Assembly: GCA_051362555.1 (NCBI GenBank)
Contig: CM120647.1
Span: forward strand, 1,860,001-1,924,000
DNA length: 64,000 nt
DNA from: Lingula anatina
Lineage: Eukaryota; Animalia; Brachiopoda
Reading direction: 5' to 3'
Positions 5,328 to 23,296 of the stretch are shown here, one piece after another. A program made the translations under genes and the position numbers. The first letter of the stretch is position 1; each line of letters opens with the position of its first letter. The notes under the pieces were generated by a model. That model ran no database searches. It had not been told where the DNA came from and saw only the letters and a list, made by a program, of their open reading frames with translations.

Positions 5328-8300
5328 ATGCAGCGAACAGGAGAGGAGTTTATGATGTTGCTATTCCTCTCCGCTCTAGTATTCAATATGACCGGCAGAG
5401 CATCCACCTCCACAATTGTCAGTTCTTATCCAATTGGGCAGACAACGGTTGGGTTCAACAACATGGCGATTGACAACGTGACTGGGACTGTATACGTTGG
5501 AGCTGTTAATGTTCTCTACCGACTGGATGGTGACTTACAACTGTTACAGAACGGAACGACTGGACCAGTCACGGATAGTCCTTACTGCAGTCCACCTGGG
5601 TCTTTTTTTCCCTGCTCACAAGGAACGCCCACAGACAACTACAACAAAATCCTAGTAGTAGACCAGTCTAGAGGTAAACTGATATCATGTGGTAGCGTGT
5701 ACCAAGGTACTTGTGAGTCTCGACCAGTCACTGATATATCACAGGTTACCCCACATCGTGGTTCTGACCCTAGGGAAAATTACGTTGCCGCTAATTCCCC
5801 CGATGCTTCCACCGTGGCTTTTATAGCACCAGGACCCAACTCTCAGGACGTGTTATATGTGGCTTCTACGTACACGGGACAGGGGGAGAGTGGCAGGCTT
5901 CGGGAACAGGTGGCAGCTGTTAGTACAAGATCTCTACAGACACTGGAATTAACGAACTACAACGCACTGTCCGTTACGGGAACGTACATAGCCCTCGATG
6001 ACACTGCTCGAAGTACTTATCCAGTAAATTACGTTTCTGGGTTCTCTTTGAACGGCTATAGTTATTTCATCACGAACCAAAAGATGACACTTATCAGCAC
6101 AGAGTATGAATCCAGATTAGTTCGAATCTGCCAGAATGATATCAACTTCTATTCATACTTCGAAATGCCCTTGCGTTGCAAAGGTGTCAATCCTAACAAG
6201 TGGTTCAATCTGGCAAAATCAGTATCGGTAACAAAACTGGGAAATGATAGTGTACTAGTGGGAACTTTTGTCAAAGGATCTAGTTCAGCTTTGTGTGTAT
6301 TTTCAATGGGAAGCATAAACAATATAATAAAAGATAAATACGAGCATTGTTACGGTGGGAATGGAAATACAGTAGCTGCACCTTTCCCAGGAGGTTCACG
6401 GCAATGCCGTTCTTTTCCAGTAAGTTTACATTTAATCAATTTCAACATTGCTGGCCAATCAATAGTTATGTAAATAATACCAACTTTTTTAAAACAAGTG
6501 CCTAAGTTGTATTTGCAGATTGTCCATAAACATCTTATCTAATTTTGCCGTTCATCAAGAATTTATTAACTACTTTCACATCTGTATACATTTTAAACGA
6601 GGTACTTTCACATCCCCAGACCTATAATTACGGGTCAAAGTACTGCAACCATGACTATGGCGGTTCTAACACTCCCCTGGTGTCAACCACCCCGGCAACA
6701 TCAACCCCTGCTCTGACAGCCACGTCGTCCACATGGACAGCAGTAACCACAACCACCACCAGCTACACTGTGGCTTTTGTAGGAACTGCTGACGGACAAC
6801 TAAAGAAGGTACCGCACAATTGGGCAGTTAGTTTGATTGTATTTTAATATATTAAAAAACGCAACAGCACATGGCTGAATTTATCATTTGTTTAATAATG
6901 TAAGTATGGTAAAATCTACTTATCGAATGTATTGATTTAAAGTTTAGAGTTTGATAACGAATGAGGGTTTTATATTTTAACTTAAAAGTTAAACAAATCA
7001 CTCATATGATGAGGCACTAAAAAGGGCAAATAAAATTGTAATATATTCTAGCTAAAGCATTTTTCTTCTCACATTTTGTTCAAACTTACCTTTTAAAACA
7101 TGTTTTATATATGTCTCAACAAACCTTTCGTGCAATTTCTATCCGTTAATAATGTTTTCAGATATTAATCCAGTCTAATACATCTGCGGTAGAATATGCA
7201 TCAGTACAAGTATCAAACGATGAGGTAAAAGATATACAGTTAGATAGCACAGGAGAGCACATGTATGTTATGACCAAATACAAGGTGAGTGCTACAGAGC
7301 TGGCACAAGGAAAAGTAGCATAAACATGAGTATGTAGTTATATGGGGAAGTAAACCAAAGTACATTTTTAATTTTTTAAAATTGCTCTTTTTTAAATGGA
7401 AAAAAGTCATAATCAATCTTTAAGATTTATGTTTCAAATTGTTTATGTATGCCTTTAATTCGCCAAAGATGACCTAACATGGGCTTGGCTCAAATGTTCG
7501 ATATGTTTGGAATATCTATACACCTTTGACATTTTTGCCCAAGAACTAAATGTAATGAGAACAGGACTTTCAATTTAAATTATAAAACGAGGCAAATATA
7601 AGTCTATGTCAAACTTTTCCCAGGTCAGTAAACTGAAGGTAGAAGAGTGCGGTAGTTACAGTAGTTGTGATGATTGTCTGGCATCTAGAGACCCGTTCTG
7701 TGGGTGGTGTAGTCTGGAGAACAAGTAAGAATATTGTGTGGACGCATTTAATCGATTTGCTTTGCATTCCTGATGGCTAAAACCCGCTGTTTTGTAGAAG
7801 TTCGAGAAGCAATTAAGCATTCAACGTGTTCATATCAAAATGTATTTTAATAGCTATAGTTGCTGCGTTTTTAAATCTTAATTACGTGTGTAAGTAAGTA
7901 TGCGTGGCAAAATGTTGCAGAAAAATAAAGGAACAATATTCTCATATTTTATTAACTATGTATTTCCACACAGTTACTGTCTTGAATCTACCGACACAGA
8001 TTGCCTTAAATGGCCAGTTTTGAACGTGTGACTGAAAAACTCATGCATACCTTACACCATCCATTTTTGTCATCAAACAGGATGCTATGTTTTTTTTAAG
8101 TGGAACGAAATGTTGTCTTTTAATGCAAGGAACAATCTGCTTCATGTATTTCTTTTTCAGATGCAGCAGAAAAAGTCAATGCTCGGATGCAGATGGGTCA
8201 GGAAGATGGCTTCCCTTTGATAATGGACAGTGTACCAAGATCAATACCATTTCACCATCAAACACACCTCTAGCCAGACCCACACAGGTACAAATAATTA

Positions 8301-23296: not shown

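Follow-up and report, generated by a model that had tools for sequence, protein, structure and literature searches.

A Met-LP-type receptor gene in the brachiopod Lingula anatina with an ectodomain likely taken from the animal's own B-type plexin

Receptors that join a plexin ectodomain to a MET-type kinase have been named Met-LP from Capitella, Aplysia and Acanthaster (PMC6374515), an account repeated in PMC10084454. As set out in PMC6374515, a Met-LP has a complete plexin ectodomain, a transmembrane segment (TM) and a MET-type kinase, and no ligand is known; two origins were inferred there, and the lophotrochozoan Met-LPs were found to group with Aplysia Plexin-1. The name Lingula does not occur in the main text of PMC6374515, brachiopods lying outside its survey, and no report of a brachiopod Met-LP was found in the literature searched, beyond whose reach most subscription journals lay. 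The locus described here (gene 1) lies in a window of 64,000 nucleotides of the Lingula anatina genome, which is the whole stretch of DNA analysed. Its plexin-ectodomain/MET-kinase architecture is already known as Met-LP, and what was not found in the literature searched is the Lingula variant, with a separate B-type ectodomain, an expanded family and perhaps an exchange that still goes on.

Gene 1 shares with the Met-LPs of PMC6374515 the complete plexin ectodomain, the TM, the MET-type kinase and the lack of a known ligand, a lack which the first-pass annotation of this DNA had stated in agreement with that paper, and the family is locally expanded in Lingula as it is in starfish. It differs from the published lophotrochozoan members, which group with Aplysia Plexin-1 (A-type in the present analysis), in that its closest plexin is a B-type plexin of its own host (81% identity). 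With MET and RON it has in common the kinase family, the glycine loop, VAVK, HRD, DFG and the activation-loop tyrosine pair, but it has three PSI and six IPT domains where MET/RON have one and four, its Sema falls outside the MET clade and its juxtamembrane segment is short. The whole ectodomain is shared with class B plexins (P0078 and P0086 of Lingula, and vertebrate plexin-B1), whereas gene 1 lacks the GAP and RBD and carries a kinase after the TM. A membrane-proximal R-x-K/R-R site is common to gene 1 (RLRR, a convertase-type site at aa 1090-1093), P0078, P0086 and the mollusc plexins P0002 and P0005, and plexin-B1 is described as processed by convertase at RXXR (PMC4026538).

Gene model and domain architecture

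The exons of gene 1 were placed by hand from the sequence and then joined by script. The gene has 26 exons at 5328-23296 on the plus strand, every intron is GT-AG with compatible phases, and a single open reading frame of 1600 aa is obtained. The features are as follows.

5328-6419, 6620-6808, 7162-7284, plus strand: exons 1-3, hydrophobic N-terminus (predicted signal peptide) and Sema (gene model, Pfam, hydrophobicity)
7624-7724, 8161-8287, plus strand: exons 4-5, PSI1 (Pfam, cysteines; junction 7724-8161 in RNA reads)
8924-9068, 9444-9540, plus strand: exons 6-7, IPT1, TIG_plexin (Pfam)
10564-10678, plus strand: exon 8, PSI2 (Pfam)
10942-11073, plus strand: exon 9, which with cassette copy A gives IPT2, PSI3 and the first half of IPT3
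11384-11476, 11730-11829, 12293-12453, 12731-12879, plus strand: cassette copy A, exons 10-13 (gene model, Pfam, PSI3 profile)
16788-16902, 17424-17572, 18029-18205, 18438-18534, 18859-19152, 19441-19581, plus strand: exons 14-19, IPT3-IPT6
19930-20278, plus strand: exon 20, last strands of IPT6, TM, juxtamembrane segment and start of the glycine loop
20765-20848, 21074-21258, 21509-21618, 21837-21999, 22499-22635, 23119-23296, plus strand: exons 21-26, MET-family kinase and short tail with Y1593 and Y1596

Pfam (23 of the 26 exons) gave Sema, PSI, TIG_plexin, PSI_PlexinA-B, TIG_2 (a weak match, E 0.0017, that fell short of the cut-off), three TIG and PK_Tyr_Ser-Thr. PSI3, in exon 12, was missed by Pfam, and since exon 12 alone matched the PSI3 of plexin-A1 only at E=0.37, a PSI3 profile made from 20 non-Lingula plexin-type ectodomains was used, which scored 40.8 bits on residues 774-820. 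All three PSI domains carry eight cysteines, each of them kept in 19-20 of those 20 ectodomains. Six IPT domains are counted in the full-length relative P0207 (TIG_plexin, TIG_2 and four TIG stretches), which aligns with the full plexin-A4 ectodomain over residues 36-1214. The domain order given by the first-pass annotation, namely Sema, three PSI, six IPT, TM and a kinase with MET signatures, is therefore borne out by Pfam, the cysteine pattern, the PSI3 profile and P0207, the motifs it quoted are all present where it placed them, and the single PSI that would have told against it was not what the domain scans returned. Its juxtamembrane segment of ~70 aa is shortened to ~60 aa, as the hydrophobicity peak of the TM is at aa 1227-1245 and GxGxFG is at 1314. 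With a complete plexin ectodomain, a single TM and a MET-type tyrosine kinase, gene 1 has the make-up of a Met-LP.

The end of IPT6, the TM, the juxtamembrane segment and the start of the glycine loop are all encoded in one reading frame in exon 20, and five database models of the Lingula family connect IPT domains to the kinase. That ectodomain and kinase exons belong to separate transcripts is unlikely for the family, and is less firmly set aside for the gene 1 copy. The kinase has GxGxFG (1314), VAVK (K1340), HRD (1433), DFG (1453) and the pair Y1465/Y1466, and as judged from the sequence its catalytic motifs are intact. The post-kinase Y-V/I-N docking motif of the four aligned MET/RON is absent from gene 1, which has the two terminal tyrosines Y1593 and Y1596 instead.

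The closest proteins to gene 1 are Lingula anatina models. P0207 (XP_013393885.1, 1605 aa) is an independent full-length model, 83% identical over 1-1599 with 6 gap positions; P0082, which starts at exon 13, is 94% identical over 826-1600, and the kinase paralog P0085 is 79% identical. The kinase-bearing models number seven and are spread over six scaffolds, some perhaps being allelic, and the family models carry PF07714 and none PF08337. P0078 and P0086 are two database gene models of Lingula plexins on different scaffolds, both with GAP and RBD. P0001 is an ectodomain-only model that ends after exon 14; the best matches of its predicted structure (pLDDT 86.9) are plexin ectodomains, and its ectodomain scores 421 bits to plexin-A4 against 90 to MET. 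Between paralogs the N-terminal Sema is the most divergent part of the ectodomain (66-84% identity, and 69-74% in the first 120 residues).

Kinship of the ectodomain and of the kinase

The ectodomain of gene 1 is 81% identical to the Lingula plexin P0078 over residues 280-1214, the N-terminal Sema standing outside this comparison as P0078 has nothing before residue 280, and ~36% identical to mollusc plexins. In the ectodomain trees gene 1, P0207 and P0078 group at 100/100 on short branches, with gene 1 ~0.06 changes per column from P0078, and the grouping recurs at 100/99-100 in each of four ectodomain regions. AU tests rejected a clade of this Lingula trio with ten mollusc-type Met-LP ectodomains (p=5e-6), gave p=4e-25 for gene 1, P0207 and P0159 as one clade, and did not reject the trio with the echinoderm (Patiria) Met-LP ectodomain (p=0.20). 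In a quick tree of the Sema domain a branch with SH-aLRT 99-100 separates the 17 MET/RON rows from the plexin side, where the Sema of gene 1 falls, and the median score of this Sema was 257 bits to 63 plexins but 97 bits to 100 MET-type proteins; the grouping of Sema with MET/RON that would have spoken against the first-pass annotation was thus not seen. In the GAP tree P0078 falls outside the A clade, weakly sister to mollusc non-A plexins (80/74), while the Aplysia Plexin-1 alignment printed in PMC6374515 shares three motifs with P0065, which is A-type in the same tree. The Lingula Met-LP ectodomain is akin to a B-type GAP plexin and appears to be young, and its ~80% identity to the animal's own plexin makes it likely that it was acquired separately and recently.

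A 50%-identity cluster search gave 150 proteins, 133 of them new, and 13 non-Lingula proteins with plexin middle domains and a kinase by profiles. One of these, P0235, was rejected, being without plexin-specific Pfam domains and having a kinase that falls among METs, and P0159 was added, so that the non-Lingula Met-LPs again number 13; those named among the ten looked up are from Argonauta, Mactra, Ostrea, Sinanodonta, Pinctada, Glandiceps and Patiria. The ectodomain tree took in 12 of the 13 (P0344, a partial match, was left out), and the Met-LP sequences of PMC6374515 are in neither the ectodomain nor the kinase trees. Ten Met-LPs form a mollusc-type group (99/98), the Glandiceps Met-LP is joined to a plexin-like protein of Ptychodera (100/100) on the A side, among deuterostomes, the Patiria ectodomain is on the B side, and the Lingula ectodomains go with the Lingula plexin. 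The sampled Met-LPs thus show four separate ectodomain placements: mollusc-type, hemichordate, echinoderm and Lingula. For the other sampled Met-LPs, identity to their best plexin is 27-34%, in a set which mostly lacks plexins of their own species, and no other brachiopod or phoronid sequence was identified among the proteins sampled.

Several further proteins were met in this survey. The Glandiceps Met-LP (P0219) and the Ptychodera protein (P0074, without GAP and kinase) lie on the A side, unlike the echinoderm Met-LP. P0178 is an Ig-domain receptor with a MET-type kinase, P0170 an integrin-domain model with a MET-type kinase and P0070 a Sema and TIR protein, any of which may be a gene-model artefact. 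P0096-P0101, P0106, P0108, P0111 and P0117, from spiders, ticks and horseshoe crab, have IPT domains and a MET-type kinase, most of them with Sema; PMC6374515 reports in its text no Mets in Ecdysozoa.

Against solved structures the kinase of the paralog P0084 scored 281 bits to MET, 254 to RON, 231 to MER and 203 to IGF1R; an EGFR tandem construct that heads these matches does so only through the sum of two 150-bit domains and was set aside. Among 256 kinase-bearing proteins the seven Lingula models are 81-99% identical to gene 1 and the next is at 57%. The best kinase trees, which were built without TAM or insulin-receptor outgroups and without the partial match P0319, show the Lingula kinase branching off deeply, with a long branch, and apart from the canonical METs of protostomes; its weak pairing with the Ig-domain kinase P0178 was flagged as one of long branches. 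AU tests rejected none of the groupings tried for the Lingula kinase: with lophotrochozoan METs (p=0.077), with mollusc-type Met-LPs (0.215), with ambulacrarian Met-LPs (0.279), or all Met-LPs as one clade (0.158). The Lingula and mollusc-type Met-LP kinases are on the same side of a 91/94 split, and on opposite sides under a mixture model (96/88). The kinase of gene 1 is old and of the MET family, no kinase from outside Lingula coming closer than 57% identity. Set against the 81% that the ectodomain shares with a plexin, this points to a recent ectodomain on an old kinase, and the plexin-kinase shuffle which the first-pass annotation had offered as one of two readings gains support, with Sema on the plexin side and the kinase in the MET family.

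Repeated segments, neighbouring genes and transcripts

Three features absent from the first-pass annotation were found in and beside gene 1: a second copy of exons 10-13, a tandem repeat at exon 8 and an inverted paralog (gene 2).

15098-15190, 15455-15554, 15942-16102, 16315-16463, plus strand: cassette copy B, exons 10-13, 91-96% identical to copy A
10248-10623, plus strand: 82-bp tandem repeat (4.6 units) of the exon-8 acceptor and first codons, of which only the last unit continues to the donor
51689-64000, minus strand: gene 2, exons 12-26, 824 codons open, its 5' part beyond the window
43274-43432, minus strand: orphan copy of the last kinase exon of gene 2
15731-16908: 1178-bp tract, introns included, 100% identical to 64000-62823 of gene 2 and reaching the window edge

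Copy B has intact splice sites and differs from copy A by 14 aa (dN/dS 0.25). Either copy alone gives 1600 aa and both in order lead to a stop at codon 885, so one cassette must be skipped for a full protein from gene 1; skipping the first exon 13 with both cassettes present gives an open frame of 1718 aa. The cassettes are separated by a single-copy, unrelated segment of ~2 kb (12900-14870) with minus-strand ORFs that had no credible Pfam match; it draws a few opposite-strand RNA reads and is possibly a transposon piece. Around the 1178-bp tract genes 1 and 2 are 78-91% identical, and the identity of the tract itself is either recent conversion or an assembly artefact. Comparison of the two genes gives a dN/dS of 0.14 for the kinase, against 0.38 for exons 15-19 and 0.56 for exon 20. 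Intron 23 of gene 2 holds a 4.7-kb insertion (53734-58459) with short internal inverted repeats.

Other genes lie in the same window. A Diedel-domain exon (PF13164, E=2.7e-8) is present four times in tandem on the minus strand (27119-27268, 32503-32652, 39231-39377 and 46039-46179), as part of repeated units, several kilobases long, that lie between genes 1 and 2. One long TRIM-like ORF, which has RING and B-box domains, is at 3-1292 on the minus strand and continues past the window start, and a THAP-domain fragment is at 49476-49760, also on the minus strand.

RNA reads of four runs from three studies were mapped to the gene 1 locus. Ten of the 15 junctions listed, out of 62, are GT-AG and predicted by the gene model or by copy B, and those joining exons 24-25-26 (21999-22499 and 22635-23119) were present in all four runs; none of the listed 15 spans exons 19-20-21, and the runs hold no long reads. 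The numbers of reads that are 90-95% alike to the window were 558/667, 395/489, 2543/3441 and 539/676, and because most reads are only this similar they are taken to come largely from paralogs or the plexin. Among 27 listed variants in model exons, eight codons alter the residue, all eight matching P0078 and seven matching P0085, a loose end at 18200 translates as a form seen only in P0078 and P0086, and read depth falls after exon 17 in two runs. The junctions 11073-15098 and 12879-16788, each of which skips a cassette, also occur, and may be from paralog reads. The RNA supports a real, expressed plexin with this ectodomain; it does not prove expression of the gene 1 copy. Short inverted-repeat elements in introns (20330-20560 and 8680-8830) draw many transcriptome-wide reads.

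Origin and likely function of the receptor

Gene 1 encodes a Met-LP-type receptor that would likely signal as a semaphorin-gated tyrosine kinase, and its ectodomain, being 81% identical to the animal's B-type GAP plexin, was likely taken from that plexin by recombination in the brachiopod lineage. Recombination between homologous plexin-type ectodomain exons would have put a plexin-B ectodomain on an older kinase gene, either an old Met-LP or a Lingula Met, the two parts meeting within exon 20 or beside it. The other reading of the first-pass annotation was an ancestral-type MET, in which three PSI and six IPT domains are the primitive state and the canonical METs lost the middle domains. As Met-LPs are widespread (13 non-Lingula proteins) and a single kinase clade was not rejected, the architecture as such could be old, but the ectodomain in hand lies close to the Lingula plexin and a long way from METs and from the remaining Met-LPs, and the AU result for gene 1, P0207 and P0159 also speaks against it. 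For the ectodomain sequence this origin is refuted, and it is highly improbable as a whole. A better candidate, although still doubtful, is an ancient B-type Met-LP kept like plexin-B by continuing gene conversion and not by a single replacement. Exons 5-14 are 87-98% identical to the plexin, but exons 18-19 are at 51-61%, a stretch in which the kinase paralogs keep 64-98%; of the informative sites within residues 512-942, 42 of 54 agree with the plexin and not with P0085, compared with 72 of 157 overall (permutation p=2e-4), the corresponding counts for P0207 are 37/60 and 53/144, and the plexin branch has a length of ~0 for the middle region but of 0.15-0.19 for the flanking ones. These patterns suggest plexin-to-kinase gene conversion, and the 1178-bp tract suggests exchange between kinase paralogs as well. 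However, none of the four regions gave a rooted tree that rejects the kinase-bearing ectodomains as a monophyletic group, runs tests on the informative sites were not significant (p=0.48 and 0.064), and region-specific selection could give the same protein pattern.

Recent acquisition from the plexin, the reading preferred here, has also to be set against what the gene 1 copy and its ligand may be. The copy may be broken or mis-assembled: either unequal recombination or the assembler would have fused a 5' plexin-type half (exons 1-13) to a 3' kinase half that starts with copy B, and the product would be a truncated ectodomain that is secreted, or none at all, while the family would still be real. 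The stop at codon 885, the tract identical to gene 2, the unrelated sequence between the cassettes and the limits of P0082 and P0001, which begin at exon 13 and end after exon 14, are consistent with this; all 26 exons and both cassettes nevertheless keep splice sites and open frames, either copy gives the full protein, dN/dS is <1 throughout and the skipping junctions are seen in reads, which may be those of paralogs, and we consider such a break rather improbable. It is somewhat less improbable, yet still unlikely, that the ligand is not a semaphorin, and that the Sema faces, duplicated and diverging as in an expanded recognition family, recognise an HGF-like factor, or else ligands that are foreign or sit on cell surfaces. 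The seven kinase-bearing models, the divergence of their first 120 residues and, circumstantially, the adjoining Diedel-domain and TRIM genes would fit this, but both P0001 and the Sema domain score far higher to plexins than to METs.

Ligand-induced dimerisation and activation-loop phosphorylation are general behaviour of receptor tyrosine kinases. By analogy, a dimeric semaphorin, probably one which the plexin also binds, would bring two receptors together, Y1465/Y1466 would be trans-phosphorylated and Y1593/Y1596 in the tail would recruit SH2 proteins; mixed plexin/Met-LP complexes may also form, and we hold this scheme with moderate confidence. A semaphorin is favoured because of the plexin kinship of the ectodomain, and semaphorins as Met-LP ligands are an untested proposal of PMC6374515. 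Mixed complexes are made plausible by the MET-Plexin B1 oligomers described in PMC11728269. More tentatively, MET-type kinase genes may have captured plexin ectodomains repeatedly, the exchange in Lingula being ongoing, with conversion keeping the kinases matched to plexin-B and one semaphorin being read via GAP or kinase.

The ligand of Met-LPs is left open in PMC6374515, and the Lingula Met-LP offers an unusually direct test case in which plexin-binding semaphorins are the first candidates. The published two-origin model would be revised: lophotrochozoans gain a minimum of one further ectodomain origin (B-type), and a Met-LP from a hemichordate is added on the A side. Receptor domain shuffling may here be caught soon after the event, and in this animal a single cue would likely activate both a plexin and a kinase.
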